From Candidatus Omnitrophota bacterium (lineage in GTDB: Bacteria > Omnitrophota > Gorgyraeia > Zapsychrales > Zapsychraceae): a stretch of DNA of 64,000 nt. The notes beneath the pieces were generated by a model. The model made no database searches. It was given only the letters and a program-made list of their open reading frames with translations, and was not told where the DNA came from. Both the position numbers and the translations under genes were made by a program. The stretch spans positions 4,451 to 68,450 of the forward strand of contig JADFXT010000002.1 in NCBI GenBank assembly GCA_015233405.1, written 5' to 3'. Positions 6,469 to 64,000 of this stretch are shown one piece after another. The stretch's first letter is position 1, and the number at the start of each line of letters is the position of its first letter.

Positions 6469-6498
6469 TTGACAAGGCCTTTAAGGCGACGATATAAT
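6469..6498 (+). promoter_or_regulatory. Near-consensus sigma70-type promoter placed for a leaderless mocA-like mRNA
   Basis: TTGACA (6469-6474), 18-nt spacer, TATAAT (6493-6498). ATG at 6506 is only 7 nt past the -10; no SD. Confidence 0.5.
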
Positions 6499-28199: not shown

Positions 28200-28221
28200 A
28201 ATGACTGGTCTCCTTGTGTGG

Positions 28222-28647: not shown

Positions 28648-28648
28648 T

Positions 28649-31143: not shown

Positions 31144-31157
31144 AAGATATGCGCCTC

Positions 31158-31185
31158 GTAGGGACACGGCATGCCGTGCCCCTAC
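31158..31185 (-). promoter_or_regulatory. Intercistronic GC-rich stem-loop between pstS and pstC
   Basis: 28-nt near-palindrome. On the mRNA strand GTAGGGGCACGGCATGCCGTGTCCCTAC pairs throughout with one G:U; on the opposite strand that pair is an A.C mismatch. Confidence 0.6.
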
Positions 31186-31194
31186 AAAGTTTTT

Positions 31195-32007: not shown

Positions 32008-32040
32008 TTTACTCCTCCTTAATTGTTTTTTATTTATTTT

Positions 32041-32062
32041 AGCCCCGCTGTTTTGCGGGGCT
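32041..32062 (-). other. GC-rich hairpin between porin and pstS genes
   Basis: AGCCCCGC-N6-GCGGGGCT, 8-bp stem. No U-tract after it on the transcribed strand, so probably not a terminator. Confidence 0.4.
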
Positions 32063-32107
32063 AACTCCGCTCTCGCCCTAAGAGACCAGGACGTCGCGCC
32101 CTTCGAG

Positions 32108-33394: not shown

Positions 33395-33448
33395 GTCTCC
33401 TCCTTTTTAATTGTTGAATTGTTTTTTTCTACAACAACTATAAAAGAG

Positions 33449-33493
33449 GAACGTGAACGCTATAGGGCTAGAATGTGACAAGTTGGTGAATCC
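33449..33493 (-). promoter_or_regulatory. Candidate tandem Pho boxes upstream of the porin-pst operon
   Basis: Minus strand GATTCAC-CAAC-TTGTCAC-ATTC-TAGCCCT-ATAG-CGTTCAC. TCAC cores are phased at 11/22 bp. The array ends 10 nt before TATAGT (33437-33442). Confidence 0.45.
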
Positions 33494-33517
33494 TTGAAAA
33501 AATAAAGTGGGAGTTTT

Positions 33518-35296
33518 TTATGCTTTTGGCAGGGTAAAAGAAAATGCGGAACCACGGCCCAATTGACTCTCGACGGAAACTTCTCCGCTGTGGGCCTGGA
33601 TGATATGCTTGACGATAGACAAGCCTAACCCGGTGCCACCAAGTTCCCGAGAACGGGCTTTGTCGACACGGTAAAACCGTTCAAAGATCCTAGAGACGTC
33701 TTCTGACGGGATTCCTTCGCCGGTGTCTGCGACGGTCACAGACGCCGTGCGGGGACCTTTTTCTTCAGCAGAAATCTTGATCAATCCGCCTTCCTTATTA
33801 TATTTGATGGCGTTGTCCATGAGGTTATAAAAGACTTGGGTGATGCTTTTTTGGTCTACCCACACTTTCGGGAAATTGGACGGGATATAATTGGTAACAG
33901 TGAGATTCTTTTTTTGGATCTCACGAGACAAGGCTTCTAAGACTTGGGTCAACATCTCATTTAGATCGACAGGGACAAAATCCAGTTTTAACTTTCCGGA
34001 TTCGATCCGTGATAGATCCAGCAAATCGTTAATCAAGCTGGCTAAGCGGTTCGCGTCGGAATGAATAATTTCCACAAAATCCCGGGCGTTCTCTTTATCT
34101 TCTAAGGCCCCGTCTAGAAGTGTTTCCGCATAACCCTTGATGGTCGAGACCGGAGTGCGTAGCTCGTGGGATACGTTCGCAACAAAATCCTGGCGGATTT
34201 TTTCCAAACGCCGTAGTTCCGTAATGTCATGAAATACCAAGACCGCGCCATCATTCTGCTCTTCCTTTAGAATGGGCGTGGCATGGATCCATAAAATTTT
34301 TTCTTCGGGGATAAAAACCGCCAGCTGGCGGCTTTCCACACCCTGTTTTTTCTCGAGTGCTTTGTCCGTTAACTCCTGAATTTCGATGTTCCGGATCATT
34401 TCAAGCGGTTTTTGATGGAGATAGTCCTGATGGATATGAAACATGCGTTTTAAGGAATCATTGATAAAAAGGACCTGTCCCTTGGCATCAACCACCATCA
34501 GTCCGTCGAACATGCTTAAAAGGACGGTTTCCAATTTTGATTTATTGGATATCACTTCCTTCATCCTCAGTTTGATCTGATCAGACATTTCATTAATAGC
34601 GTCGGATAAATCCTGTATCTCATCGTTCGTCCTTATATGGCTATGTTTCGTGAAATACCCTTGGGCAATGCCTTTGGCAATCGCGGAAAGTTCCCGAACA
34701 GGTTTGGAAATAAACAAAGACGTCCAGAAGCTTAAAAGGATGGCTAAAGCAAACGCCAGGAGTAGCGCCCATAAAAGGAGTTGTTTTAACTTTGCGGAGA
34801 TCAGAGCGATCTCAGATAAGGGAATGGCTAGCCGGACAACCCCTTGAAAGTTTTTCTCAGATAATAAACCCGCGACGTAGAGCAAGTCCACTTTTAACGT
34901 CGAGCTAAATCGCCGGCTTAACCCAAAGCCGGTGTGCAAGGCTTGTTGGACTTCAGGACGATAAAGATGATTTTCAATCCCTTTGACTTGAGACAGATCC
35001 AGCTTTGAATCTCCCAAAACCACGCCGTCATTTCGGATGATCGTCACTCGTTCGTCAAGATTCTCTCCAAGTCGGTCGGCGATTGTGTCCAGGGATTCAA
35101 ACGATGGATTCTCGGGTAAATTTTCCTTTAGAGAGTTCGTCGCAACATTGAGCTTTCTGGATAAATCGGAAAGAATTCTTTGGTAAGCATTCTCGGTGAG
35201 ATTTTGGTTAAGGTCGTAATAAATAAACGTCAAGACAACGGCTGTTATAAACACCGTCACTAGAATGATCTTGGCGCGAATATTCAGATGGATCAC
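33518..35296 (-). CDS. phoR: PhoR-like sensor histidine kinase
   Basis: 592 aa. TM-periplasmic-TM, HAMP, PAS, HisKA (SHELRTPVSTIKGY) and HATPase (GTGLGLSIV); 4-nt overlap with the response regulator gene. Confidence 0.8.
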   Translation of the reverse strand: MIHLNIRAKIILVTVFITAVVLTFIYYDLNQNLTENAYQRILSDLSRKLNVATNSLKENLPENPSFESLDTIADRLGENLDERVTIIRNDGVVLGDSKLDLSQVKGIENHLYRPEVQQALHTGFGLSRRFSSTLKVDLLYVAGLLSEKNFQGVVRLAIPLSEIALISAKLKQLLLWALLLAFALAILLSFWTSLFISKPVRELSAIAKGIAQGYFTKHSHIRTNDEIQDLSDAINEMSDQIKLRMKEVISNKSKLETVLLSMFDGLMVVDAKGQVLFINDSLKRMFHIHQDYLHQKPLEMIRNIEIQELTDKALEKKQGVESRQLAVFIPEEKILWIHATPILKEEQNDGAVLVFHDITELRRLEKIRQDFVANVSHELRTPVSTIKGYAETLLDGALEDKENARDFVEIIHSDANRLASLINDLLDLSRIESGKLKLDFVPVDLNEMLTQVLEALSREIQKKNLTVTNYIPSNFPKVWVDQKSITQVFYNLMDNAIKYNKEGGLIKISAEEKGPRTASVTVADTGEGIPSEDVSRIFERFYRVDKARSRELGGTGLGLSIVKHIIQAHSGEVSVESQLGRGSAFSFTLPKA

Positions 35297-35985
35297 GCTT
35301 CCTCCTCGGAAAATTTATAACCGTAGCCGCGAATGGTCTCCAAATGCTTTCCTGCGCGGCCCAGTTTCTGACGAAGCCTTTTAACGTGTGTATCGACGGT
35401 GCGGGTGGTCACATCTGCCTGGATGTCCCAGACATCGTCTAAAAGCTGGTCTCTCGATTGAACGCGTCCAACACGGGTCATTAATGTGATCAAAAGCTTG
35501 AATTCCATCGCCGTTAACTCAACGATTTTTTCAGCAACCGTTACGGTATGGCGCGGGATATCAATGGTTATGTCCCCGATGGTGATAATATCTTTAGAGC
35601 CTTCGGGTTTCTTATTTTGAGCTCTTTTGAGGATGGCCTTGATTCTTAAAACAAGCTCTCGAGGACTAAAGGGCTTTACAATATAATCATCGGCGCCAAG
35701 CTCAAATCCCACGACGCGGTCGACCTCTTCCCCTTTGGCTGTCAACATGACAATTGGCACGCTTTGAAACTTGTTATGGGACCGAATTTGTTTACAAACT
35801 TCCAACCCGTCTATTTTAGGAAGCATGATGTCTAAGAGAATCAAGTCAACGCTCTGGGTATCCAAAACGTCAAAGGCCTCTTCGCCGGTAATCACGGCCG
35901 TGCAGGTATAGCCGGATTTCTCCAGAGCATATTTGACCAGCTTGGAAATGTTTTTGTCGTCTTCAACAATTAAAATGTGCGCCAT
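35293..35985 (-). CDS. phoB: PhoB-like OmpR-family response regulator
   Basis: REC domain (ILIVEDD...DLILLDIMLP) plus winged-helix (RGYGYKF). Start at ATG 35985 behind SD GGAGGA. The track ORF starts at 36015. Confidence 0.85.
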   Translation of the reverse strand: MAHILIVEDDKNISKLVKYALEKSGYTCTAVITGEEAFDVLDTQSVDLILLDIMLPKIDGLEVCKQIRSHNKFQSVPIVMLTAKGEEVDRVVGFELGADDYIVKPFSPRELVLRIKAILKRAQNKKPEGSKDIITIGDITIDIPRHTVTVAEKIVELTAMEFKLLITLMTRVGRVQSRDQLLDDVWDIQADVTTRTVDTHVKRLRQKLGRAGKHLETIRGYGYKFSEEEA

Positions 35986-36042
35986 ATTCCTCCAGTTTTT
36001 AACCGATGCAAACATCCTTTTCTCAAAGAATAACTTGCGGAT

Positions 36043-36123: not shown

Positions 36124-38139
36124 TTATTTTGCCTTGTGTTTTAGGTATTCCATCGCCGAAAGGATATTGATCATGACTCGCGCTTTTTCGATGGCAAACC
36201 CTCCCATGAAAAGGAGCGATTCTAAGTCGCCATACACCAGATGCTTGATGATTTTATCATGAGGATCCAGAGGAAAATCCATGTCGGCTAAAATTCGTTC
36301 ATAACGAAGCCCGACGTAAATGGTCCGCCTTAGATCCACTTGGCGAATCCCGTTAAAAAGTTGCACGCCCAGATTGGTCCTGCCGCCGTATTCCTGAACG
36401 TTTAATCCCTTTTTGACATACCCTAATTCCGAAAAAATAAGAGTTTCCGCCGTGCTAAACGGAGCGACGATCAAAAAGTCCGCATAATTGGTTTCGACCT
36501 CTTTGGCGATCTTTTTGTCGATCTGAAGCCGGCTGCGATATTCCAAGCTCCGTTCGAGCGGAGTTGGAATACAGCTCGTGGTCCGCCGGTTAAATGGTAA
36601 AAGGTTATAACAGCTGTCTGCCATGGTGCTAGAAAAGGGGCAATGATTTTCATAGATTAAGCGATAATCGCAATCGTTAGGATAATTAAACCCATACGCA
36701 CAGAAAAATGTGAACAGGATTAGCAGGATAAAACTAAAATGAATCAGCCTTGGCGTTAGAAGAACGAAGACGATCAGAAAGGCCAGAGCAAATAAAATCC
36801 ATGGCGGGAGAATATGAAAAAATAGATACAGATAGCCGGTGACGCCAGCGACGAGGATCTTGACAAAAAGCCGGGCGGTGCGTAAAGATTGGACGGTAAA
36901 GATAAATAGAAACGCCATAAACGGGGCCAATAAAAGTTGATAACGCGGAAGCATGGCGGAAAAGTTGAGATAAACCAGAAACCATAAAGCGCTGATGGTC
37001 AGCATGATCAAGACGATATAATGTTCTGTAAAAAATAATGCAAGCCTCCCTCGTTTTTCCCTCGGCTGCCGCCACCAGATGACTGATTGAATGAGAAAAA
37101 TAATCAAAGCTATTAAAAGGAGTTTTCCCCAAGGGTTTGCGGTCAGAAACGGCAAGCCGCAAAAAGCGGCTATACGGTTACCGGCAAGTTGTTCTCCGGC
37201 GATAACAGCGCGGATTTTAAACTTCACGAGCGAGATGATGAGGACCACGAGCCCGCACAATAAAAATTTCCAGCGCTTCTTTGTATCTGTTTCTTTTAAG
37301 AATAATCCGATACTAAAAATAAAGACCGTTAAACAGGCAATGACTCCGGGATCTTTAACGAAATTGGACAAGAGCGCCGTCACAGATGCGCTCACCAGCC
37401 GTCGTTGCCAGAGAAAATAGACGGCAAGCATGGCAAAAAATAAACATGGCATTTCCAAATTGAGAAGTTCCAGCATGCTTTGAAAAAGTGGCAGAGACAC
37501 AAGCAGGATGGCGCCATAGATGGCGATTTTCTCGTCGAAGGTTTGACGTAATATTTCTCGAAAAGTAACGATAACGATTGTGGCAAAGATGAAATGGAGC
37601 AAATGCATGACCAGAAGAAATATCGGCGTGCTGGGAATGATCTTCATCAGCGTGGCGATAAATAATGTATAGAAACATGTCGGATAGATCGGCGGGCCGC
37701 CTTTTGTAAACAAGTCCAGCTGAATCATGCCGATATAATTCAGGGAATGTTTATAAAGCCAAATGACGTCGATAAAAGGTCCAGTGATCGCCTCGCCATA
37801 CGGAGGGTCGAGCAAAACCTCAAACCGCGTTATGAACAAATAGGCAAAGATGATGAGCCCGAAACGGCGCGGCGTCAGTTTGTTTTGATAAATAAAACAA
37901 ATACTTAATAAGAGGACCCCGGCGAGAACTGATTTGATGGGACCTAAAAAAACAGTTTCAATCCTTCCTAAATAATAATCAAGCGGCATGCCTCCTTGGT
38001 TTCCTGCAAGCTTGTTAAGAAGGTCGTAGGATTGATGCTGGTAAAGATATTCAATGATCGGTTGGCCAAAGAATCTGAAAAAAAGAAAAAGGGCCGCCAC
38101 AGGAATAAAAATAATCCAGGGATTCCTAAAAAATTTCAC
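36124..38139 (-). CDS. Large polytopic membrane protein, possible GT-C-type glycosyltransferase / glycan polymerase
   Basis: 671 aa. At least 12 predicted TM helices plus a ~170-aa soluble C-terminus. Located 21 nt downstream of the sugar cluster. No firm motif. Confidence 0.45.
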   Translation of the reverse strand: MKFFRNPWIIFIPVAALFLFFRFFGQPIIEYLYQHQSYDLLNKLAGNQGGMPLDYYLGRIETVFLGPIKSVLAGVLLLSICFIYQNKLTPRRFGLIIFAYLFITRFEVLLDPPYGEAITGPFIDVIWLYKHSLNYIGMIQLDLFTKGGPPIYPTCFYTLFIATLMKIIPSTPIFLLVMHLLHFIFATIVIVTFREILRQTFDEKIAIYGAILLVSLPLFQSMLELLNLEMPCLFFAMLAVYFLWQRRLVSASVTALLSNFVKDPGVIACLTVFIFSIGLFLKETDTKKRWKFLLCGLVVLIISLVKFKIRAVIAGEQLAGNRIAAFCGLPFLTANPWGKLLLIALIIFLIQSVIWWRQPREKRGRLALFFTEHYIVLIMLTISALWFLVYLNFSAMLPRYQLLLAPFMAFLFIFTVQSLRTARLFVKILVAGVTGYLYLFFHILPPWILFALAFLIVFVLLTPRLIHFSFILLILFTFFCAYGFNYPNDCDYRLIYENHCPFSSTMADSCYNLLPFNRRTTSCIPTPLERSLEYRSRLQIDKKIAKEVETNYADFLIVAPFSTAETLIFSELGYVKKGLNVQEYGGRTNLGVQLFNGIRQVDLRRTIYVGLRYERILADMDFPLDPHDKIIKHLVYGDLESLLFMGGFAIEKARVMINILSAMEYLKHKAK

Positions 38140-53122: not shown

Positions 53123-54796
53123 ATGTTAACTCAACTTACCATCCAGAACTTCGGCCTGATCGATTCCCTTTCAATTGATTTTGAAAAAGGACTCAATGTC
53201 TTTACCGGCGAGACCGGTGCCGGAAAATCCATCCTTATTGATGCCTTACGCATCGCTCTGGGGGAGCGGATTTCTCCTTCTTTAGTCCGTGAGGACACGA
53301 AAGCCTGTATCATTGAGGCGGTGTTCGATCTGTCCAAGAACGAGCTCAAATCGTCCGAGACCTTGCGGGATTTTTTTCAGGACAAGGATTTCACCCTGAT
53401 TATCAACAGAACTTATTCTTCCGACGGAAAAAATAAGATCAAGATCAACGGCCTCAATATTACTTTAAGTCAGCTCAAAGACGTGGGAAACTGCCTGATG
53501 GATTTTCATGGGCCCCATGACCATCAGATGCTCTTGTCCTCCTCTTCTCATTTAGGGATGCTCGATCGATTGACGGATTTCGGAAAGCTGCTGAGCGATT
53601 ACGCAAATCATTACGAGGGTTATGTAAAGCTTAAGGAAAAACTCGGTGAAATCGAGGCGCTGGCCTCCTCCCACGACCGGGACCTTGATTTATTATCTCA
53701 TCAAATTGGTGAGTTAAAGCAAGTTCCTCTTGATGAGGATAAGTTTCAGGAATTGCTTGGGCAGCAGACAAAGGTGAATAATGCCGAGAAACTTTATGAT
53801 TATATCCAGAAAATTCTGAGCTTATTAGAGGCCGGCGATAATAGCCCTGGGGAAAATATCCGGCAGGCCTTCTCTCCTATGCGGGATTTAAACCAGACGG
53901 ATGAGAAAACCGCGTATTTGATGGAGAGCTTGTCACAACTTCAAGGGCTTAATGACCAGATCATTGCGGATTTAAAAGATTACGCCGACAGCATTTCATT
54001 TGATCCTTCCGAAGCCCAGGAGATCAATGCCAAATGTGATATTTACGACGACATTAAAAGAAAATATGGCCCAACCTTAGCTGACGCAAAGATTTTTTTT
54101 GAAGAGGCTTTAAGGAAACATCAGCTTTTATCCAATCTTGAACAGAATGACGCTGATTTAAAAAAGGAAATCCAAGCGGCCGAGGCTGCGCTTGTTCAGA
54201 TTGCTAAGAAAATGACCAAATGCCGTCAGAAAACAGCGGAAAATCTTAAAACAACGATCGAGAAAGAATTGTCTGAGCTAGGGATCATTCATGTTCAGTT
54301 TGAAGCGCGTATCGACAAGGTTGAGCTTGGCGCAAGCGGTCAGGATTCGGTGACGTTTTATATTAGTCCCAATGCCGGCGAGGAATTAAAGCCATTATCA
54401 GAAATCGTTTCTTCCGGGGAAGCCGCCCGTGTTATGCTTGCCCTTAAAAAGGCGCTGATTGAAGTTGACCCGATCCCGGTTCTGATCTTTGATGAAATCG
54501 ACGCGCAGATCGGCGGACGGCTCGGAACCGTGACCGGTAAGAAATTAAAAAGCCTTTCGTCGCATCGGCAGGTCATTTTGATCACCCATCTTCCCCAAAT
54601 CGCCTCTTTTGCCGACCAGCATTTTAAAGTTTTAAAAATGGTCAAGAATGGCCGCACAATCACATCGGTCGAGGCTTTAGATAAGAACGCCAGGGTCAAA
54701 GAATTAGCGAAAATGATGAGCGGTGAAAAGGAAACGCAGATCTCCCTTCAACATGCTGAGGACCTTTTGTCGAAGGCAACCGTTTCTAAAAAATAG
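53123..54796 (+). CDS. recN: DNA repair protein RecN
   Basis: 557 aa. Walker A GETGAGKS, long coiled coil, C-terminal SGGE signature and LIFDEIDAQIGG. Confidence 0.95.
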   Translation: MLTQLTIQNFGLIDSLSIDFEKGLNVFTGETGAGKSILIDALRIALGERISPSLVREDTKACIIEAVFDLSKNELKSSETLRDFFQDKDFTLIINRTYSSDGKNKIKINGLNITLSQLKDVGNCLMDFHGPHDHQMLLSSSSHLGMLDRLTDFGKLLSDYANHYEGYVKLKEKLGEIEALASSHDRDLDLLSHQIGELKQVPLDEDKFQELLGQQTKVNNAEKLYDYIQKILSLLEAGDNSPGENIRQAFSPMRDLNQTDEKTAYLMESLSQLQGLNDQIIADLKDYADSISFDPSEAQEINAKCDIYDDIKRKYGPTLADAKIFFEEALRKHQLLSNLEQNDADLKKEIQAAEAALVQIAKKMTKCRQKTAENLKTTIEKELSELGIIHVQFEARIDKVELGASGQDSVTFYISPNAGEELKPLSEIVSSGEAARVMLALKKALIEVDPIPVLIFDEIDAQIGGRLGTVTGKKLKSLSSHRQVILITHLPQIASFADQHFKVLKMVKNGRTITSVEALDKNARVKELAKMMSGEKETQISLQHAEDLLSKATVSKK

Positions 54797-54821
54797 GCCT
54801 AAAATTATAAAGGAAAAGATT

Positions 54822-55787
54822 ATGACCCAGAAAATTTTTGTAGGCATTGATGTCGGCGGGACAAAAATCGCCACAGGGCTTGTAAGTCCGTCAGGGAAAA
54901 TCCTCTCCCGTGCCAAATCTCCGACGCCTCCTAATGCGTCTTCGGCAGAGATTATCCGCTCGATCTCTTTTCTTTGTGATGAAATGTTTTCTAATTGTAA
55001 TCTTAAGAAAAAGAATTTAGCGGGTTTGGGGATCGGAATTCCAGGTATTGTTGATGATAAAGGCGTGGTCATTCGCACGCCTAATATGAGTTTGTCTAAG
55101 GTGAATCTTAAGAAACAATTAGAACAAAAGTTTAAAGTGAAGGTTGCGTTAGGGAATGATGCGAATTTTGGAGTTCTCGGCGAGAAATGGCTAGGCGCTG
55201 CACGGAAAGTCCATAATGTCGTGGGATTGTTTTTGGGGACTGGTCTTGGCGCGGGAGTTGTGATCAATGACCGGATTTTTACCGGCAGTCATGGTGCGGC
55301 GGCAGAGCTCGGGCATATGATCCTTCAGGATAGGGGCGGCCCGAAATGCGGGTGCGGCAATCAAGGGTGTTTGGAAGCTTTGACCGGAAGATGGGCCATG
55401 GAACGCGATATTAAAAAAGCGATTGCAGAAGGTAAGAAAACGATTGTCACAAAGCTCGTCGATAATATTCATAAGCCGATTAAAAGTAGAATTTTATATG
55501 AATCTCTCGAGAGGCATGACCCTCTTGTCTCAAAAATCGTGACCGAGGCCTCCTATCAATTGGGAATCGCCTGTATATCGGTCAAACATATCTTTGACCC
55601 TGAAATGATCGTCCTAGGCGGCGGAGTGATGAAGGCTTGCGGGGATTTTATCCTGCCTATCGTCAAGAAAGTCGCTCAAAAAGATAAATTTTTTTTAGGG
55701 ATTGGTAGTTGCGAAATTGTGGCATCCGAGCTCGAAGATGATGCGATTATTTTAGGCGCTGTGGCGGCTTTGGCGGGCAGCCGGTAG
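54822..55787 (+). CDS. ROK family sugar kinase (glucokinase-like)
   Basis: GIDVGGTKIA ATP motif and ROK signature with Zn-Cys cluster (GHM...CGCGNQGCLE). Start taken at ATG 54822; the track ORF starts at 54723 inside recN. Confidence 0.85.
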   Translation: MTQKIFVGIDVGGTKIATGLVSPSGKILSRAKSPTPPNASSAEIIRSISFLCDEMFSNCNLKKKNLAGLGIGIPGIVDDKGVVIRTPNMSLSKVNLKKQLEQKFKVKVALGNDANFGVLGEKWLGAARKVHNVVGLFLGTGLGAGVVINDRIFTGSHGAAAELGHMILQDRGGPKCGCGNQGCLEALTGRWAMERDIKKAIAEGKKTIVTKLVDNIHKPIKSRILYESLERHDPLVSKIVTEASYQLGIACISVKHIFDPEMIVLGGGVMKACGDFILPIVKKVAQKDKFFLGIGSCEIVASELEDDAIILGAVAALAGSR

Positions 55788-56376
55788 TGAAAGTGATCCG
55801 CACAATTTTTTTAAAGGCGTCTTTAAGAAGATCTGCCTTTCTCCTTCCGATTGTAATATCTTCAGGAACCAGTCGTTTCCCTTTTAATTGCACGAGGATT
55901 TGTTTGCTAGAGGTTTTACAAATTACATCTTCAACAGAAGATTGATGCGTTCTATCAAGCCCGTCGGCCAGCCTTAAAAAGGATGCCAAGATCTTTACAA
56001 TCCTTTTTGATTTCTCATCGAGATCACAAAAATATTTATGGCTTGCTTCCGGAAGGCTTTTACGGTGATACCGTGCGATCAATCCGATGCGGATTCGTTG
56101 TTGTCTGGGAATCCCAAGTTGTTGGGATTGGATGATAAGCGCTTGGGACGTTTTGTGATGTTTTTGTTGGCCCTTGACCCAGCCGATATCGTGTAGGATT
56201 GCCGCAGCTTCCAGAAGGGTTCGTTCTTTTTCTCCTAATTTATGAAGAGGACTTAATTGGTCAAAAAAACTTTTGGCTAGTTTAGCGACGTGAAGAGCGT
56301 GGCGTTCTTCATAATGAAATACTTTTGCCAAGGAAATGGCGCGAAGACTTAAATTATTTTTTTGAGATGTTCCCAT
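55747..56376 (-). CDS. Stand-alone HD-domain protein resembling the C-terminal half of Ppx/GppA
   Basis: 209 aa. HALHVAKLA...AAAILHDIGW...HHK motif series as in Ppx domain III; overlaps the CHAD gene by 28 nt. Confidence 0.75.
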   Translation of the reverse strand: MGTSQKNNLSLRAISLAKVFHYEERHALHVAKLAKSFFDQLSPLHKLGEKERTLLEAAAILHDIGWVKGQQKHHKTSQALIIQSQQLGIPRQQRIRIGLIARYHRKSLPEASHKYFCDLDEKSKRIVKILASFLRLADGLDRTHQSSVEDVICKTSSKQILVQLKGKRLVPEDITIGRRKADLLKDAFKKIVRITFTTGCPPKPPQRLK

Positions 56377-57236
56377 GTATTTTTTTCTTTAAGGCATTCC
56401 CACTCTTTTATGAAATCTTTATAGGTTTTTGCTCGCAGCGCCGTGCAGGTTTTCTCAAGATAGAAAACAGCCCTTTTTAGATTTTTGGATTGGCCACCTT
56501 TTTTCTTAAGTTTGGGAAAATATTCCAACCACACATCAAGCTCGTGCAAGTCTCCTAAAACGTCCTGAATGCGACGGGCCGCAGTAATCGCTGGGTTGAT
56601 TTTCTTACCGTAAGAAGATTTAAAAATTTCCAGGACATACCGTAATTTTTTGGCGGCGATGCGCGTGTGATGCAGTAGCTTTGTTTTTTTAGGTTTATAG
56701 ACGTGATCTTCACAATGAAGAAAGTTGGATAATTTTTTTATGATCACGTCCCTTCTTTTAATTTCAAGGGGTTTGTTTAAGGATTCCGCTTTGCTGAGAT
56801 TAGATTGGAAATTTATTGTCTTAAATTGATCCAAGACGTCGAGGATTTTTTTCTGGGCTATTGCACGTCTTTCTTGAAGGATCTCGGCAAGCTCATTTAT
56901 ACCGACGATGAGGTGTTTGTTCTTGAGCTGGCGTTTTATGGAAAAAAGAAATCTAAGCTGAATATCGAGCTCTCTGGCTTCGCCGAGCGCTCGGCCGACT
57001 AAAGATATGCGTCTTGACCAGTCGAGGGTTTCTTTTGCCGGCAATAATCCAATCGCTTGAAAGGCCTTAAGGGCGGCTCGAAGCCGGCGGGAAGCGACCC
57101 TCATGCGATGGAGCGGTTCAATCGCGGTTCCATTTTGAACGCGGGTTTTTTCTTTTAAGAAATTATTGAGATAGCAGGATAGTGTTTTCTGGGCGTGAGA
57201 TTGGGGGTGTATTTTTTCATTTTGCATAGTATCCAA
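56349..57236 (-). CDS. CHAD domain protein (polyphosphate-granule associated family)
   Basis: 295 aa. All-helical with repeated His/Arg motifs (HRMRVASRRLRAALKAF, HHTRIAAKKLRYVLEIF); 20-nt overlap with ppk1. Confidence 0.8.
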   Translation of the reverse strand: MDTMQNEKIHPQSHAQKTLSCYLNNFLKEKTRVQNGTAIEPLHRMRVASRRLRAALKAFQAIGLLPAKETLDWSRRISLVGRALGEARELDIQLRFLFSIKRQLKNKHLIVGINELAEILQERRAIAQKKILDVLDQFKTINFQSNLSKAESLNKPLEIKRRDVIIKKLSNFLHCEDHVYKPKKTKLLHHTRIAAKKLRYVLEIFKSSYGKKINPAITAARRIQDVLGDLHELDVWLEYFPKLKKKGGQSKNLKRAVFYLEKTCTALRAKTYKDFIKEWECLKEKNTWEHLKKII

Positions 57237-59250
57237 TCAGACTTTCCTGGGCGTTGAAGGGATTGTCAGTTTTTTCCGGACGGACATATCCTTTGCTGGA
57301 CGTTAAAATGCGGGATTTTACGGTGTCTTTCCAATATTCCTCCAGGATGAATTTCAGGTGTTGTTTAAGCTCTTCCTTATTGACTTCAAAGAGAAGCTCG
57401 ACGCGCCGGTCGAAATTGCGGGTCATCCAGTCGGCTGAAGCCAAAAACATCCGGGAATCGGAATTATTATTAAACATATAGATACGGGAATGTTCCAAGA
57501 ATCGCCCGACGATACTTTTGACTTCAATATTTTCGCTCATTCCTTCCACTCCTGGGATCAAACAGCAGATTCCACGGACGATTAAATTTATTTTTACTCC
57601 GGCGTTGGACGCCTCATATAATTTCTCGATCATCCGGGGATCTTCCAGAGAATTAAATTTAGCGAAAATAAGGCCGTTCTTATATTTTTTCTGAGCAGCT
57701 ATTTCTTTGTCGATGAGCTCGAAAAAATATTGCCTTAGATCATACGGAGCGGAAATGATCCTTTTCCAGCGCGACGGAAGCGAATAACCGGTAATGACAT
57801 TAAAGACATCCGAGATGTCCTTAGCGAAGTCGTCATTGGCGGTGAAATAGCCGATATCGGTATAGATTTCCGCGGTCTTTTCATTGTAGTTTCCCGTCGA
57901 AAGATGAACATAGCGACGAATCCCGCCTTCTTCTCGTCTAACGATCATCGTCATTTTGGAATGGATCTTCATGCCCAAAATGCCGTAAATGACGTGGCAC
58001 CCGGCCGCTTCCAGCTCTCTGGTCCAGTAAATATTTTTTTCTTCATCAAATCGGGCTTTGATTTCAACGAGGACCGTGACCTGCTTTTTATTTTTGGCCG
58101 CTTCAATCAGTGCTTTAATAATGGCAGAATTTTCATTCGCGCGATAAAGGGTCATTTTGATGGCCAAGACGTCATTGTCCCGTGCCGCGGACTGAATCAG
58201 GTCTACCGTCGGATGAAAGGATTGATAGGGAAAATGAAGAATAAAGTCGCTCTCCTTGATCTTATCAAAAATATTTTCAAATCCTGTTTTGACGGGCACA
58301 TAACTTTGATAGAAAAGGTCCGGCTTGTTGACCTGGCCTGGGAGTTCAAAGAGATACGTTAAATCTAAGTCTCCGTCGATAAGGCTGACTTGGTCTTTGG
58401 AGAAATCAATTCCGGTGGAGAGCATTTCCAGTAATTGTGGATGATGGTTCTTTTCGATTTGAAGGCAGACAACTTTTGCCTTGGGCCTTTTTTGGATCTC
58501 GCTTTCGATAACTTTAAGCAGGTCCAGACTATATTCTTCCTCTGCTGACAATTCGCTGTCGCGGATGACTCTAAATAGAAAGCTCCCGAGGATCTTGAAT
58601 CCTTTAAAAAATGTTTCTAGGTTTTCGCGGATAATATCGTCGATCAAGATAAAACAAAACTCGTTTTTCTCTGACGGCAATTTAAAAAGCCTGGGGATTG
58701 ATTTTGGTACTGTGATTAAAGCCAAATAGGGGGAATCATTGCGTCCCAAATAGACGCCGAACGCTTTTGTTTTGGAGACCAACACCGGAAATGGATGCCC
58801 GGGGTCAATCGCCATAGGTGTGACGATCGGAAAAATCGTCGTTTCAAAATAGCGTTTTGCGGCTTTTTTTTGTTCCGCATTGAGCTGGTCGGCTCTGAGA
58901 ATGAAGATTTTGTTTTTTTCAAGTTCTTTGGTGATATCTCCTTTGTAGAGAGAATAAAGACGTTCTAAAAGAGATTCGATTCGGCTTTGAATTTCAGAGA
59001 ACAATTCCTGAGGATAATAGCCAAAATTGTCTTTGTGATTATATCCGGCATCCAAAAGCCTTTTGAGCCCAGCGACGCGGACCATTAAAAACTCGTCGAG
59101 GTTATTGGCAAAGATAGCGAGAAATTTTACTTTTTCTAAAAGAGGGTTCCCTCGGTCCATCGCTTCTTCAAGGACGCGTTCATTAAATGAAAGCCAGCTT
59201 AGGTCGCGGTGAATAAATATGTTTTTGGGGTCTTGGTTCTTGATATCCAT
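57217..59250 (-). CDS. ppk1: Polyphosphate kinase 1
   Basis: 677 aa. N-terminal FIHRDLSWLSFNERVLEEA, autophosphorylation-His region (HSKMTMIVR) and two PLD-like C-domains. Confidence 0.95.
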   Translation of the reverse strand: MDIKNQDPKNIFIHRDLSWLSFNERVLEEAMDRGNPLLEKVKFLAIFANNLDEFLMVRVAGLKRLLDAGYNHKDNFGYYPQELFSEIQSRIESLLERLYSLYKGDITKELEKNKIFILRADQLNAEQKKAAKRYFETTIFPIVTPMAIDPGHPFPVLVSKTKAFGVYLGRNDSPYLALITVPKSIPRLFKLPSEKNEFCFILIDDIIRENLETFFKGFKILGSFLFRVIRDSELSAEEEYSLDLLKVIESEIQKRPKAKVVCLQIEKNHHPQLLEMLSTGIDFSKDQVSLIDGDLDLTYLFELPGQVNKPDLFYQSYVPVKTGFENIFDKIKESDFILHFPYQSFHPTVDLIQSAARDNDVLAIKMTLYRANENSAIIKALIEAAKNKKQVTVLVEIKARFDEEKNIYWTRELEAAGCHVIYGILGMKIHSKMTMIVRREEGGIRRYVHLSTGNYNEKTAEIYTDIGYFTANDDFAKDISDVFNVITGYSLPSRWKRIISAPYDLRQYFFELIDKEIAAQKKYKNGLIFAKFNSLEDPRMIEKLYEASNAGVKINLIVRGICCLIPGVEGMSENIEVKSIVGRFLEHSRIYMFNNNSDSRMFLASADWMTRNFDRRVELLFEVNKEELKQHLKFILEEYWKDTVKSRILTSSKGYVRPEKTDNPFNAQESLIGYYAK

Positions 59251-59254
59251 GGAA

Positions 59255-60808
59255 TTATCCGGCCTGTTGAATTTTAAGATGGACTTTTTTTCCTGAGATT
59301 TCTTCGAACATCTCTTTTTTATCGATAAATTCGAGCTTTTCCAGGGCGAAATTGCTTGTGACAGAGACGGTCAGAACAATATCCTGGGACCGGTTTAAGC
59401 TAACTTCGAGATTCTTGACCTTTTGTTTATGCGAACGGTCCAGCGAGTTAGAGATCCTTAAAATCGAGCTTAATTTCTGGATGAGAATTTGTTTGTCTTT
59501 AGGAAGCGACCGGTAAAGCAAATGCGTATCCGCGGGAAGTCCCCGACGATGATAACGGGCGATACAGGCAATGACCTTGATTTCTTCATCGGTTAAACGG
59601 AACAAATTCAAATTTGAAATGAGGTATTCTGTATGTTTATGGTGGGCGCGATTATAAATAAACAGCCCGATCGGGTGAAGATAAGTCGCCAATAACAAAT
59701 AGAGCAATTCGGTCTTTTTTAAGCCTAGCGTTTCTTTAAAATTATCGAAAAGTTTCTCAGACAATTCAGCCACATGCTGGACGTGGGATAAATCGACGTT
59801 ATATTTTTTACAGATCCATTTGGCGATGGAGATGAGCTGGTTGGTTTTGTTATATTTTTGGGAAACTTCAAAATCCATGACCATGTTCGTTAAGACAGCT
59901 TCCGAAAGCGACGCTTCGAGGATATAAATATTTTTGTTTTCATTAAGGTCCGCGAATGTGTTTAAGATCATCGCATAGCCGGGAAACGTATCTGCGCTTT
60001 CAGGCGGAATTTTATATTCGTCGGCAATTTGCTCAGAATTCTTATCTAAAATTTTTCCAAGAAGCTCCTCTGTTTCCGCTTGGCTTAGCTTAAAGAATTT
60101 ATCCTGAAAGGTTTCTTTGGAAAGAATGCCTGGCAAATAAGTGGTATAATTTTCATCGATCAGGATAATGTCGTCGAGCTTAATGGAGAACAGTTCCCGT
60201 TTTAAATAGGCGAACTCCCCCTCGATATTTTCTCTGACGGCTTCGTAATTTTCCTGAAGGCTTCCGTCTAATTTACTTAAAAGTTGTTTAAGCCGTAACA
60301 TCCCTAAAGGAAGTCCGATATTCATCAGGGTATATCCTTGCGCCATGACGGAAATATCAAGGCTTCCCGCTCCCAATTCCGCGATCAGAAGATTTTTCGT
60401 GTGAATAGGATATTTGTCTTTTAGGATATGATAAAGATACGCGTCGATATAATAGATGACATCGCCAACGGTGAAAACTTCAATATTAAAACCGGTCCGT
60501 CGGGAAATGGTGTCGATAAAGACATCCCTGTTATCGGCTTCCCGCACCGCGGTCGTTGCAATGACGCGGACATCCAAAATCCCATACTCTTTTAATTTTT
60601 CACGGTATTTTTCCAGGATCGCGACCGTATGATTGATCGTCTCTTGGGTGAAGCGGCCTTTATAAAAGGTGTCTTTTCCTAAGAGGGCCACGTTCTTAAG
60701 CGATTCTAAGATCTTGATATCTTCTTTCGCTTCTTCCGCAATCAAGAGTTTGATCGAGTGGGTTCCAATATCGATAATTCCTGCTCGGATGGGTTCTTTA
60801 TCTTTCAT
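59255..60808 (-). CDS. ppx: Exopolyphosphatase (Ppx/GppA family)
   Basis: 517 aa. ASKHA fold (IIDIGTHSIKLLI, ELGAGSLD) plus C-terminal HD-like domain. Confidence 0.9.
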   Translation of the reverse strand: MKDKEPIRAGIIDIGTHSIKLLIAEEAKEDIKILESLKNVALLGKDTFYKGRFTQETINHTVAILEKYREKLKEYGILDVRVIATTAVREADNRDVFIDTISRRTGFNIEVFTVGDVIYYIDAYLYHILKDKYPIHTKNLLIAELGAGSLDISVMAQGYTLMNIGLPLGMLRLKQLLSKLDGSLQENYEAVRENIEGEFAYLKRELFSIKLDDIILIDENYTTYLPGILSKETFQDKFFKLSQAETEELLGKILDKNSEQIADEYKIPPESADTFPGYAMILNTFADLNENKNIYILEASLSEAVLTNMVMDFEVSQKYNKTNQLISIAKWICKKYNVDLSHVQHVAELSEKLFDNFKETLGLKKTELLYLLLATYLHPIGLFIYNRAHHKHTEYLISNLNLFRLTDEEIKVIACIARYHRRGLPADTHLLYRSLPKDKQILIQKLSSILRISNSLDRSHKQKVKNLEVSLNRSQDIVLTVSVTSNFALEKLEFIDKKEMFEEISGKKVHLKIQQAG

Positions 60809-60813
60809 AGAGT

Positions 60814-61653
60814 TTAATTGATCCTAATATTTTTAAAATTTTTTTCCGGTTTCGGGTAGTGCATGTTTAATCTTTTTAGTGTTTCGATAATAAGAATCGA
60901 AATAGAAAGGTTTCTCTGCCATTTTTTGTTGGAAGGAATGATGAACCACGGCGCCCAGGTGGTGCTGGTTGCCTTGATGGCATCTTCATAGGCATCCATA
61001 TATTTGGGCCATAACTTTCTTTCCAAAAGGTCCGCGGAGCTTAATTTCCAGTTTTTATTCTTATCATCAAGCCGTTCTTCTAATCGTTGGGTCTGTTCCT
61101 CTTTGCTGATGTTTAAGAATATCTTTAAGATGGTCGTCCCTTCTTCGACGAGCATCCGTTCAAAATTGTTAATGTGCTCATAGCGTTTTTGTAAAAGGTC
61201 TGTGGGCACCAGATCATGAACGCGTGTAATGATCACGTCTTCATAATGGCTTCGGTTAAAGATAACAATCTCCCCCTTGACGGGAACTTTTTGATGAATG
61301 CGCCAGAGATAATCGTGGTCTAATTCTTCCTTGCTGGGGACTTTAAAGGTGGCGACCCTTACTCCCTGGGGATTGACCCCTTTAAAGACATGTTGAATCG
61401 TCCCATCCTTGCCGGAAGCATCCATGCCTTGAAGGACGATCAGGATTTTATGCTTATGCTCGGCATAAAGCAGATATTGGAGTTCTGCGAGCTTGTCTTG
61501 CAGTTCTCCAATCATGTCCTGTTCGTCTTTTTTCTTTAAACCGGGAACAATAATATCCTCCGGGTCCTGTTTGCACAGTTTTAGCTTGGCGTGAGGAGCG
61601 ACACGGTATTTTTTAAAGACAATGGGCGTTATTTGATCGAAAATTTTGTTCAT
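60814..61653 (-). CDS. ppk2: Polyphosphate kinase 2 family protein
   Basis: 279 aa. Walker A-like QGMDASGKDGTI and lid FNRSHYED, typical of PPK2. Confidence 0.9.
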   Translation of the reverse strand: MNKIFDQITPIVFKKYRVAPHAKLKLCKQDPEDIIVPGLKKKDEQDMIGELQDKLAELQYLLYAEHKHKILIVLQGMDASGKDGTIQHVFKGVNPQGVRVATFKVPSKEELDHDYLWRIHQKVPVKGEIVIFNRSHYEDVIITRVHDLVPTDLLQKRYEHINNFERMLVEEGTTILKIFLNISKEEQTQRLEERLDDKNKNWKLSSADLLERKLWPKYMDAYEDAIKATSTTWAPWFIIPSNKKWQRNLSISILIIETLKRLNMHYPKPEKNFKNIRIN

Positions 61654-61665
61654 AATCGAGCTTCA

Positions 61666-61694
61666 ATTATAGACATAATGCATTGGTTTATCAA
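61666..61694 (-). promoter_or_regulatory. Near-consensus promoter of the polyP operon, giving a very short or absent leader
   Basis: Minus strand TTGATA, 17-nt spacer, TATAAT. Only 12 nt separate the -10 from the ppk2 ATG; no SD. Confidence 0.5.
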
Positions 61695-61858
61695 GAGGTT
61701 TCTGGCTTCTATGGCTGGTTTTCGGCTGATTTTTTCGGCGACAAGGAGAAAAAGGTATTTCTATGGAAATAAGATTGATTTTGTTATTTGAGTATGTTAA
61801 TTTATCATCTTAACTAAAGGACTTAACTTAATTAATCATTCTTAAATAGGAGATTAAC

Positions 61859-63073
61859 ATGAAAAAAATAGGCGTTATTACAAGCGGTGGAGATTGCGGT
61901 GGATTAAATGCGGTCATAAAAGGTGCGGCCCAAATGGCCCAGGCATATAGCGGCGCATGTTATGTGATCCCCAACGGTTATGCCGGGCTTTATAATTTAA
62001 TCGAATTTGATAGTCTTGTTGAGTTAACCGTCGACCGGGTTGATTCCGTCAATGCCAATAACGCCGGGTCGGAAGCCGGGCATTCCAGGGTCAAGGTCAA
62101 GAAAATCAATGATGAAAAAAAATATGAGCGCATCAAGCAGGGATTGAATAAATTCGGGATTGAAGGCCTGGTCATTAGCGGCGGGGATGATTCCGGAAGC
62201 GTGATGGTAGATTTGTCCGAACAGGGTATTAAATGCGTCCATGCGCCTAAGACCATGGATTTGGATTTGCAGACGTATTCCGTCGGATTTGATTCCACCG
62301 TTAACCGTATCGCCAGCTTTGCCGAAGACATTAAAACCACCGGCCGTACGCATAATCGCGTGATGGTCATGGAAGTTTTTGGCCGTTATGCCGGGCATAC
62401 CGCTTTCCGTGCCGGAGTCGCGTCGGACGCTGATGCGATCTTAATTCCTGAAGTCCCAGTCGATTTTGATGCCCTTTATGAGCATTGCAAAAAAGTTTAT
62501 ATGCGCCGTGTTTTAACCAGCGACGTCAAAGCCGGGACCTACCTTATTATTGTCGCCGAAGGTTTACGTAACGCTAATGGCGAAGAGCTTTATGATGAAG
62601 CGGCCGGCATTGATGCCTTTGGCCATAAAAAGCTCGCTGGCGCCGGACTTTACGTCCAGAATGAATTATCCAAACGGTTCAAAGCTGATCCGTCGATCAA
62701 AGCCTTTATGAAGGAATCGAAGATGTTTGTGGAAGGTATTTATGAAAAACCGGAAGTCCGGACTGTGGCTCCAGGGCATTTGGTCCGTTGCGGGCGCTCG
62801 TCGGTCTATGATGTTAATTTCGGTAAAGAAGCTGGTGCCGGTGCGGTGGTCCTTTTACAAAATGGCATTTCCGGTGTGACCATTTGCGGCTTTAGCCAGG
62901 GAAAAATTGTTTATCTTCCGTCTAAAGAAGCGATCAAACAAAGACATGTTGATGCCGAATCGGTTTCTTTTTATGAGAAATTAGGCATTTGTTTTGGACG
63001 AAAGTTTCAGCAATCTTCTTTCCCAGGATTTCAGGAAAAGACCGGACACATCGAGAGATATTTAAGCTTATAA
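61859..63073 (+). CDS. pfp: 6-phosphofructokinase, predicted pyrophosphate-dependent
   Basis: 404 aa. SGGDCGGLNA. GGDDS (Asp111) and PKTMDLD (Lys131) occupy the positions of E. coli PfkA Gly104/Gly124. SD AGGAG. Confidence 0.8.
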   Translation: MKKIGVITSGGDCGGLNAVIKGAAQMAQAYSGACYVIPNGYAGLYNLIEFDSLVELTVDRVDSVNANNAGSEAGHSRVKVKKINDEKKYERIKQGLNKFGIEGLVISGGDDSGSVMVDLSEQGIKCVHAPKTMDLDLQTYSVGFDSTVNRIASFAEDIKTTGRTHNRVMVMEVFGRYAGHTAFRAGVASDADAILIPEVPVDFDALYEHCKKVYMRRVLTSDVKAGTYLIIVAEGLRNANGEELYDEAAGIDAFGHKKLAGAGLYVQNELSKRFKADPSIKAFMKESKMFVEGIYEKPEVRTVAPGHLVRCGRSSVYDVNFGKEAGAGAVVLLQNGISGVTICGFSQGKIVYLPSKEAIKQRHVDAESVSFYEKLGICFGRKFQQSSFPGFQEKTGHIERYLSL

Positions 63074-63141
63074 GCTGATTCATCGTCCCCGGGAGCTTTG
63101 ATGCCTTGAAGGATGAGTGTTTTTAAGCTTTTCCATTTTCT

Positions 63142-64000
63142 ATGGCCAACCCTCTGTCCTATTTGTCTTTCCGTGAATTTAAGCGGTCTTTGTTTAATGC
63201 CATTAAACAAGAAGATAAAACGTATCTGTTTTTTCTTTTTATCCTGACGTTATGGGCTCTTGTTGTTCGGGCGATTTATTTAAGTCAGCCCATGCGTTAC
63301 GATGAAGCTTATACGTATATTGTTTTTGTTGCAAGGCCGCTTAGTATCGGTCTTTCTTCTTATACGGTCCCCAATAATCATATCTTCCATACGCTTTTAG
63401 CTCATATTTTTTGTTCTTTCTTGGGCAATCATCCTTGGGTTGTGCGATTACCGGCTTTTCTCGCCGGGGTCGCTATGGTCCCTGCCTCCTATTTGGCCAT
63501 GCGTCTTTTGTACAATAAAAATGCCGCGATCCTTACGGCCGCATTTGTTGCCTCTTCGGAAATCTTCATTGAATATTCCAGCAATGCCCGAGGGTACACG
63601 ATAATTTGTTTATTTTTTCTGCTGATTTTATCTCTGGCGAAATATCTTAAAGATCACGATAATTCTTTCGCGTGGCTGCTTTTTATTCTTTTATCCAGTT
63701 TAGGTTTTTATACGGTCTTTGCCATGTCATATCCTTTTGGCGTTATTTTGATTTGGCTTCTTCTTTCCGCTGTTTTGAAGGACATAAAAATTTCCTGGGG
63801 GACATTTCTCAAGCGTTTGTTGGCAGCTATCTTTTTAACTGTGGTGTTGGTCTTTGTGTTTTACTCACCTGTGATTATGACGTCAGGGATTCAACCAATT
63901 GTTGGAAATACTTACATAAAGAAGTTTATCGCGCCCGAATCGCTTTTGCCTTTTCTTCAGTCAATAAACCAAATTGTTGAACGTGGGCTCTTGAATGTTC
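63142..64000 (+). CDS. GT-C family (ArnT/PMT-like, GT39/GT83-type) membrane glycosyltransferase, 5' part (runs off the window)
   Basis: Missing from the ORF track because it has no stop in the window. My translation is open from ATG 63142 to 64000 (MANPLSYLSF...). First-loop YDEAYTY acidic motif; multiple TM helices. Confidence 0.65.
   Translation, partial: MANPLSYLSFREFKRSLFNAIKQEDKTYLFFLFILTLWALVVRAIYLSQPMRYDEAYTYIVFVARPLSIGLSSYTVPNNHIFHTLLAHIFCSFLGNHPWVVRLPAFLAGVAMVPASYLAMRLLYNKNAAILTAAFVASSEIFIEYSSNARGYTIICLFFLLILSLAKYLKDHDNSFAWLLFILLSSLGFYTVFAMSYPFGVILIWLLLSAVLKDIKISWGTFLKRLLAAIFLTVVLVFVFYSPVIMTSGIQPIVGNTYIKKFIAPESLLPFLQSINQIVERGLLNV

Follow-up and report, generated by a model that had tools for sequence, protein, structure and literature searches.

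Here we describe a compact polyphosphate (polyP) gene cluster in a stretch of 64,000 nucleotides, hereafter the window, from contig JADFXT010000002.1 of a Candidatus Omnitrophota bacterium. Translation of its open reading frames (ORFs) places five genes on the minus strand between positions 55747 and 61653. The first is ppk2 (60814–61653), encoding a single-domain PPK2 of 279 aa (PF03976, 243.5 bits). It is followed by a ppx-like gene (59255–60808) for a 517 aa protein of the Ppx/GppA fold (PF02541, 85.7 bits; PF21447, 81.6 bits), by ppk1 (57217–59250; 677 aa, four PPK1 Pfam domains), by a gene for a stand-alone CHAD protein (56349–57236; 295 aa when read from a TTG start; PF05235) and by a gene for a 209 aa HD protein (55747–56376). 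The Pfam assignments of all five proteins exceed the gathering scores; together with the ORF positions they bear out both the gene arrangement and the five family assignments (PPK2, Ppx/GppA, PPK1, CHAD and HD) of an original prediction made from the DNA alone.

The genes are tightly packed, with gaps of 5 nt between ppk2 and ppx and 4 nt between ppx and ppk1, and overlaps of 20 nt between ppk1 and CHAD and 28 nt between CHAD and HD. These are the junction sizes first proposed, and the two gaps and the 28 nt overlap stand as they were; the 20 nt overlap holds only with the TTG start of CHAD at 57236. An in-frame ATG at 57227, which reduces that overlap to 11 nt, fits the N-terminal length of the orthologues better and is the more likely start on this comparison.

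The HD protein is the focus of this report. It matches the Ppx-GppA_III family (PF21447) at 4e-20 (72.8 bits against 27.3) and the HD family (PF01966) at 3e-9 (37.6 bits against 22). Its best relative of solved structure by sequence is the exopolyphosphatase (PPX) of Deinococcus radiodurans, over residues 350–488 (2e-20), and with the C-terminal half of the Ppx from its own operon it shares 30% identity. The AlphaFold model is helical and confident (pLDDT 92.8). With Foldseek, about 200 of the 209 residues superpose on domains III and IV of the PPX/GppA proteins of Escherichia coli, Yersinia pestis, Klebsiella pneumoniae, D. radiodurans and Helicobacter pylori (TMq ~0.7), with E. coli PPX (2flo) at 1e-8 and a C-terminal fragment of Y. 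pestis PPX (3rf0) at a TMt of 0.77. The best HD folds from outside the PPX family, HD-GYP and YpgQ, matched the model at E values of 0.05 or worse, and the model for the GppA C-terminal region, NF008260, matched the sequence weakly (33.9 bits). A resemblance to the C-terminal half of Ppx had been suggested together with the means of checking it, and the profile search and the structure prediction against Ppx domains III and IV both recovered it, with the fold match extending over about 200 columns.

The same suggestion described the protein as an HD module split from any ASKHA domain. The 209 aa ORF does lack an ASKHA domain, but its relatives show that it is not simply a detached module. An exhaustive HMMER search, counted by cluster representatives at 50% identity, gave 187 matches at E ≤ 1e-30 and 2677 at E ≤ 1e-10. 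Among the best 150 matches, 88 were HD-only proteins of about 200 aa and 41 were fusions of a metallophosphoesterase (MPE) to HD; there were also 10 CHAD-HD proteins, 3 CHAD-MPE-HD proteins, 1 MPE-HD-HD protein and 7 Ppx proteins. Pfam confirms the single-chain CHAD-HD (P0127, P0135, P0154) and CHAD-MPE-HD (L086, P0165, P0204) architectures. In a simple neighbour-joining tree of the HD domains from 86 loci and the window, built without support values, the Ppx-fused copies form one group, while the stand-alone, MPE-fused and CHAD-fused domains form a second, in which the window's copy groups with other stand-alone copies from Omnitrophota. By sequence, then, the HD protein is a member of a widespread and separate clade, paralogous to Ppx domains III and IV, with CHAD and metallophosphoesterases as its partners. 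Since it lacks the ASKHA half and falls outside the Ppx-fused clade, it is not a Ppx-family exopolyphosphatase, despite the labels given to it by JGI. We also considered the protein as a fragment of a split Ppx and rejected this; genuine split pairs of a Ppx N-terminal part and an HD part (L064, L075, L071) branch apart from the other non-Ppx HDs, and alongside the HD gene the window encodes a full-length Ppx.

In the second group of the tree the MPE-fused forms are scattered among the stand-alone ones, which points to repeated loss or splitting of the MPE. The partner MPE domain is of the YfcE type and keeps its DxHxN, GD, GN[Y]D, H and GHxH motifs; as this active-site set is complete, the ancestral module may have contained two hydrolytic centres. 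The 64 kb of the window include no gene for an MPE.

A scan of one genome per species found at least 491 genomes with a relative of the HD protein, from which 80 loci were fetched and their flanks annotated with domain-envelope hidden Markov models. These loci come from Planctomycetota (Pirellulales, Sedimentisphaerales, Phycisphaerae, Brocadiia), Omnitrophota, Anaerolineae, methanogenic and anaerobic methanotrophic (ANME) archaea and scattered other lineages. Where at least 1.2 kb of upstream sequence was available, CHAD lay immediately upstream of, or was fused to, the HD or MPE-HD gene in 54 of 69 loci, and several of the remainder carry CHAD elsewhere in the cluster. PPK1, Ppx or PPK2 occurred in the fetched flanks of 58 of 77 loci. 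The association of this HD clade with CHAD and with polyP enzymes is therefore observed across several phyla.

The exact composition of the cluster varies, and the five-gene order is not what is conserved. When co-occurrence was counted among 16 Omnitrophota-type loci, the full run ppx-ppk1-CHAD-(MPE-)HD was present in 14, and a ROK-family kinase adjoined HD or MPE-HD in 15 and lay one gene away in the other (L029). The order ppk2-ppx-ppk1-CHAD-HD was found only in the window and in one other locus (L001), the only two with ppk2 at the head of the operon. The conserved unit is thus ppx-ppk1-CHAD-(MPE-)HD with ROK, and ppk2 is a variable add-on to it. Elsewhere the arrangement differs again: Planctomycetota loci often have a phosphofructokinase (PFK) followed by HD-(guanylate-kinase-like)-CHAD-MPE-HD-ppx-ppk1, and Anaerolineae loci have pst-phoU-(two thymidylate-kinase-like genes)-CHAD-MPE-HD.

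The metal-binding motif of the HD protein is intact (H26...H62-D63...D138), and the family alignment shows H26, H62-D63, H73-H74-K75, R102-Y103-H104-R105 and D138 (within RLADGLD) as invariant. Among the non-Ppx HDs from the fetched loci, D63 is kept in 88 of 88 and D138 in 87 of 88. Among these, the second HD genes that lay outside the selection made by the search pattern retain the metal Asp residues in 8 of 8 cases, and the top matches of the exhaustive search have D63 in 142 of 142 and D138 in 141 of 143. By comparison, the Ppx proteins encoded in these loci have each Asp of domain III in only 18 of 44 cases, with E, N or P in its place. The contrast with their Ppx neighbours suggests that in the CHAD-associated clade, in particular, the metal site of the HDs has been kept intact by selection.

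The adjoining CHAD protein is a clear member of its family (PF05235, 126.8 bits against a threshold of 25.6; best solved structure the CHAD entry 6qv5, 1.5e-10). Like the HD protein, with its isoelectric point (pI) of 10.2, it is strongly basic (pI 10.1). [quoted passage not shown] Deletion of CHAD proteins gave no phenotype, and no role beyond binding is known for them (PMC6537752, PMC10892726).

The start of the CHAD gene has a further feature. In CHAD genes of two related loci (L001, L087) start and stop codons overlap with ppk1 as ATGA; in the window an ATGA lies at 57220–57217, out of frame with CHAD. One added A in the A6 run that follows would put it in frame and give MKKIHPQSHAQ..., with an N-terminal length as in L087. 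The cause would be a genuine indel, for which the upstream ATG at 57227 compensates, or else a homopolymer error in the assembly.

The 28 nt overlap between CHAD and HD (56349–56376) has the same length in L001, L087 and L088 and in the contig of P0011, whose HD proteins are 46–64% identical to that of the window. A conserved Trp codon (aTGG), nine codons ahead of the CHAD stop, accounts for this constancy. HD lies in the –1 frame relative to CHAD. In the window the overlap includes an A7 run, and the corresponding overlap of L087/L088 (8001–8028) carries a perfect A AAA AAA slippery heptamer. We asked whether a programmed –1 frameshift or slippage joins the two proteins; this was not supported, as L001 has no slippery run, and such a frameshift is unlikely.

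Both polyphosphate kinases are readily recognised. By its sequence PPK1 is unambiguous: the N, middle, C1 and C2 domains (PF13089, PF02503, PF17941, PF13090) are all present and it scores 832.3 bits against TIGR03705, where the cutoff is 465.85. Its translation shows the phospholipase D (PLD)-like His motifs KIHSKM and LEHSRI, which we take to be the counterparts of the phospho-His motifs of E. coli PPK1. PPK2 scores 372.8 bits against TIGR03709 (cutoff 247.2) and has GMDASGKDG as its Walker A motif. Its best solved structures are 5lc9/5o6k (1e-98), then 6an9/6au0, of which 6au0 is named 'Class III'; the class III entries range from 1e-98 to 1e-66, while the entries in the Protein Data Bank that we presume to be class I match at only 1e-28 to 1e-31. 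The question of PPK2 class, which had been left to phylogeny, is thus answered at the level of best-hit similarity, at which the protein is most similar to class III enzymes, those that phosphorylate AMP and ADP at the expense of polyP.

The Ppx-like protein is more divergent. It has a PPX fold over its whole length, with ASKHA domains I and II followed by domains III and IV; its model (pLDDT 89.5) matches full-length PPX/GppA structures at E values of about 1e-24 and the Ppx/GppA of Aquifex aeolicus (1t6c) with a TMt of 0.85. It nevertheless fails both curated exopolyphosphatase models (TIGR03706, 114.6 bits against a cutoff of 307; NF008108, 83 bits against 864), and NCBI annotates it as 'hypothetical protein' (HQL24_01825). 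Both it and the HD protein are 100% identical to NCBI proteins of a 'Candidatus Omnitrophica bacterium' metagenome-assembled genome. The top 120 homologues of the Ppx-like protein are 55–84% identical and are mostly from Omnitrophota metagenome-assembled genomes, with some from Elusimicrobia and Firestonebacteria. In this subtype an invariant VGDV(V/I)YYIDA stands in place of the canonical SGxEEARL, the motif of the catalytic Glu, with ELGAGSLD for DIGGGSTE and SEA for REG.

The catalytic core of D. radiodurans PPX consists of D7, R86, E114, D136 and E143 with the REG motif (PMC11234463). Of these the Ppx-like protein has counterparts in D13 and R89, with E144 for D136, D151 for E143 and SEA for REG. 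The position of the catalytic Glu falls opposite D122 when hhalign is run against canonical Ppx and opposite V117 when it is run against the Planctomycetota type; the two comparisons disagree, and the secondary structure of the model, in which residues 114–128 form one continuous helix, favours a hydrophobic residue there, V117 or I118, with Asp116 just before. Domain III has neither Asp of the HD motif, with Pro and Asn instead. The window's protein reads LHP there, where at least 90% of subtype members have LHD. From its sequence we regard the Ppx-like protein as an Omnitrophota-specific subtype that combines a PPX fold with a remodelled catalytic motif. Its many invariant acidic residues suggest that it is still an enzyme. 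The original prediction had assigned polyP degradation to it; the fold and domains agree with this, but with the curated models failed and the catalytic-Glu motif replaced, an exopolyphosphatase is a less safe assignment than it looked.

Based on these observations, we propose that CHAD tethers the basic HD protein to polyP, where HD would act as a metal-dependent phosphohydrolase, a proposal to which we give an even chance. PPK1 would build polyP from ATP, the class-III-like PPK2 would spend it to re-phosphorylate AMP and ADP, and the divergent Ppx-fold protein may also act on the polymer, with uncertain activity. The overlapping CHAD and HD genes would yield a functional pair that assembles on polyP, with the basic CHAD supplying affinity for the polymer or granule and the HD protein, held by CHAD, hydrolysing polyP or a short polyP-derived phosphoanhydride in a metal-dependent reaction. 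We propose such a pair by analogy with recruitment of the YgiF type and because CHAD-HD and CHAD-MPE-HD chains occur naturally. In most other lineages the HD domain is additionally fused or adjacent to a YfcE-type MPE, which the lineage of the window lacks. A bolder form of the proposal is that CHAD-(MPE)-HD is an unrecognised and widespread polyP-tethered phosphohydrolase system of bacteria and archaea and that, in Omnitrophota lineages like that of the window, where MPE is absent and the canonical catalytic Glu motif of the Ppx-fold protein lost, the CHAD-held HD is what actually degrades or trims polyP; this we consider unlikely.

Several points weigh against catalysis by the HD protein. 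No enzymatic activity is assigned to Ppx domain III in the papers on characterised PPX/GppA proteins that we consulted; these give the C-terminal half a supporting part in polyP binding, in processivity or in the geometry of the N-terminal domain. The strictly kept HD motif might itself stem from metal-mediated binding of polyP instead of hydrolysis. Its invariance is also in part an effect of ascertainment, because the scan pattern contained LHDIGW and the top matches resemble the query, and the tree that separates the clade, being a simple neighbour-joining tree, is without support values.

These points lead to a second explanation, that the HD protein is a non-catalytic polyP-binding subunit, in effect a free-standing PPX C-terminal half, which caps or bundles polyP or hands it to PPK1, PPK2, Ppx or CHAD. 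It has the same fold and the same pair of domains as that half, which in E. coli PPX is linked to processivity and serves as a polyP-binding probe (PPBD), and a pI of 10.2 would suit such a role. By analogy, too, the domain stands C-terminal to a clearly catalytic domain in both Ppx and MPE-HD. What binding alone leaves unexplained is why H26, H62, D63 and D138 are near-invariant in the CHAD clade when the same positions have changed to E, N or P in the Ppx-fused copies, for which polyP binding is still presumed. We think a purely binding role possible but on the unlikely side.

The HD protein might instead hydrolyse a nucleotide alarmone or nucleoside polyphosphate ((p)ppGpp, pppGpp or Ap4A), which would connect the turnover of polyP with signalling of the stringent type. 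Hydrolases directed at nucleotides are part of the HD superfamily, pppGpp is a substrate of Ppx/GppA relatives, and both the weak match to NF008260 and the guanylate- and thymidylate-kinase-like P-loop genes beside CHAD-HD in Planctomycetota-labelled and Anaerolineae clusters could be read in this way. However, the active site of GppA/PPX for nucleotide or polyP lies in the ASKHA half and not in domain III (PMC11234463), the structural matches to YpgQ and HD-GYP are weak, and fusion or adjacency to CHAD, a binder of polyP, points to the polymer. A nucleotide substrate is, on this evidence, very unlikely.

A promoter of the sigma-70 type, TTGATA-N17-TATAAT, lies at 61666–61694 on the minus strand and matches the consensus at 11 of 12 positions. 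Over the entire window there are 2 sites with at least 11 of 12 matches, and shuffled sequence gives 2.0 ± 1.3, so the count is no better than chance. The site is credible as a real promoter because, in three related genomes (L001, L087, L088) whose HD proteins are only 56–64% identical to that of the window, the operon is headed by both hexamers and their flanking bases (cTTGATA ... g[t/c]cTATAATt), even though the spacers between them are unrelated. The single near-consensus upstream promoter of the original prediction is upheld by this conservation. In L087 and L088, the closest relatives, the same promoter stands before ppx and ppk2 is absent. The –10 hexamer ends 12 nt ahead of the ppk2 ATG, which predicts an mRNA leader of about 5 nt and thus a nearly leaderless transcript, and inspection of the upstream sequence found no Shine-Dalgarno sequence before this ATG.

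Within the operon, promoter-like matches (20 against 14.2 ± 3.6 shuffled) and terminator-like matches (10 against 9.2 ± 3.1) are not enriched over shuffles, so the check for internal promoters and terminators does not contradict co-expression. No convincing terminator lies between the genes, where only weak stems of 5–6 bp occur at chance frequency; none was found at the downstream end of the operon, and no riboswitch or other RNA matched Rfam at E ≤ 0.1 in 54500–63500. With its tight packing, one promoter and no convincing internal terminators, the layout is consistent with the five genes forming one transcription unit, probably read as a single nearly leaderless polycistronic mRNA from the conserved promoter; co-expression and the translational coupling first suggested are both predictions from this layout. 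Against this stands one promoter-like site of 10 of 12 matches within ppx (59679–59651). It is highly improbable that the genes are adjacent but separately expressed, from internal promoters for ppk1 or CHAD-HD, with HD a decaying remnant after loss of MPE: that ppx site, the lack of ppk2 in the operons of the closest relatives and the repeated loss or splitting off of MPE in the clade favour this, but the gaps are of 5 nt or less or are overlaps, the CHAD/HD overlap is preserved among divergent relatives, the invariant HD-family residues are all intact in a confident model, and stand-alone HDs beside CHAD are common in several phyla.

The only promoter match of 12 of 12 in the window is elsewhere, TTGACA-N18-TATAAT at 6469–6498 on the plus strand, ending 7 nt before the ATG of an ORF at 6506. 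Together with the promoter of the polyP operon, its position suggests that leaderless or nearly leaderless mRNAs may be common in the source organism.

The cluster is flanked on both sides by kinase genes. The 3' end of the HD gene converges on that of a ROK-family sugar kinase (54822–55787, plus strand; PF00480, 223.6 bits), with an overlap of 41 nt. In several Omnitrophota-type loci the ROK gene is co-directional with HD and directly downstream of it; there the protein has a length of about 450 aa and no CxCGxxGC zinc motif. The window's ROK was tried as a recognised polyphosphate-glucokinase and rejected, with 55.5 bits against NF045942 (cutoff 250) and ATP-glucokinases (2qm1, 3vgk) as its best structures. 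From its gene context it is a candidate polyP-dependent sugar kinase, although the sequence of the window's copy resembles that of an ATP-glucokinase.

On the other side, a PFK gene (61859–63073, plus strand; PF00365, 203 bits) diverges from the operon promoter. The protein carries GGDDS and PKTMD, with an Asp/Lys pair that we take to mark pyrophosphate (PPi)-dependent and not ATP-dependent PFKs; Chi and Kemp reportedly traced this distinction to these two positions in 2000. A PFK also adjoins the cluster in L001, L087, L088 and nine Planctomycetota-labelled loci (those named with a PFK are L001, L087, L088, L089, L007, L008, L010, L031, L054, L065 and L077), and the Lys signature is present in many of the Planctomycetota-labelled ones.

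Nucleotide-kinase-like genes are further neighbours in other lineages. In ten Planctomycetota-labelled loci (L003, L007, L008, L010, L012, L014, L024, L031, L076, L089) two HD paralogues flank CHAD, often with a guanylate-kinase-like gene between, and in Anaerolineae clusters (L005, L017, L032, L036, L042 and others) two tandem thymidylate-kinase-like P-loop genes lie between phoU and CHAD. These neighbours may be nucleotide kinases fed by polyP.

Genes of phosphate acquisition are also found near the module. A complete phosphate-starvation cluster with phoB-like, phoR-like, porin, pstS, pstC, pstA, pstB and phoU genes occupies 27528–36015 of the window, about 20 kb from the polyP operon and on the same (minus) strand. 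In L002 and in Anaerolineae loci, pst-phoU genes lie right beside the CHAD/HD cluster. A 671 aa ORF (36124–38139, minus strand), next to the phoB-like gene on its upstream side, has no Pfam match at E ≤ 1e-5.

Parts of this locus are already known from other systems, namely ppk-ppx operons, stand-alone CHAD genes in polyP clusters and class III PPK2. As in the E. coli ppk-ppx operon (Akiyama, Crooke & Kornberg 1993, as cited in PMC6537752), genes for PPK1 and a Ppx/GppA-fold protein are adjacent, co-directional and tightly spaced. The window differs in having ppx before ppk1, three added genes (ppk2, CHAD and HD) and a Ppx without SGxEEA. Its PPK2 resembles the class III enzymes of Meiothermus ruber (5lc9, 1e-98) and Cytophaga hutchinsonii (6an9, 6.5e-69), being a single PPK2 domain of about 280 aa that passes TIGR03709, with the class resting on best-hit similarity. 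The CHAD protein recalls the stand-alone CHADs of polyP clusters (Tumlirsch & Jendrossek 2017; Lorenzo-Orts et al. 2019, PMC6537752), which are likewise basic CHAD-only proteins among polyP enzymes and whose family is shown to bind polyP and granules; here, however, CHAD is consistently paired or overlapping, and elsewhere fused, with an HD of the Ppx-III/IV type.

The HD protein shares its two-domain fold (TMq ~0.7) with domains III and IV of PPX/GppA (E. coli 1u6z/2flo, Y. pestis 3rf0, D. radiodurans 8jgo). With the D. radiodurans PPX entries it shares 28–30% identity and the motifs HHK, RYHRK and LRxADxLDR. It differs in being free-standing, in its separate clade and in retaining the two Asp residues of the HD motif, absent from Ppx proteins of the E. 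coli type and from many of the neighbouring ones. The closest parallel in organisation is with the short-chain polyphosphatases of the YgiF type, in which a phosphohydrolase domain (CYTH/TTM) is likewise coupled to CHAD as the proposed recruiter of polyP. In our case HD, with or without MPE elsewhere, replaces the triphosphate-tunnel domain, and the window has two overlapping genes and not one chain. For the MPE of other lineages, yeast Ppn2 (cited in PMC6537752) is a precedent at the superfamily level for a calcineurin-like phosphoesterase acting as an endopolyphosphatase, although the window itself encodes no such domain.

The CHAD-(MPE)-HD module and the Omnitrophota Ppx subtype with its remodelled motif are departures from these known systems. 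Full-text literature searches found no description of a CHAD-HD or CHAD-MPE-HD module or of the non-Ppx domain III/IV clade; an earlier mention by Iyer and Aravind in 2002, who are said to have dealt with stand-alone CHAD proteins in polyP gene clusters, is possible.

A conserved and often fused candidate enzymatic partner gives a concrete and testable answer to what CHAD does beyond binding. If the proposed activity is real, the HD clade, with at least 187 clusters (50% identity) at E ≤ 1e-30, would add a candidate polyP-acting enzyme family to a short prokaryotic list. The module is carried by the cultured Longilinea arvoryzae KOME-1 and Methanoculleus frigidifontis, and also by Leptolinea sp. 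HRD-7, for which there is a complete record of 3.57 Mb. The flanking ROK kinase and the PFK of apparent PPi type further hint that polyP and PPi may be wired directly into the upper glycolysis of these anaerobes.

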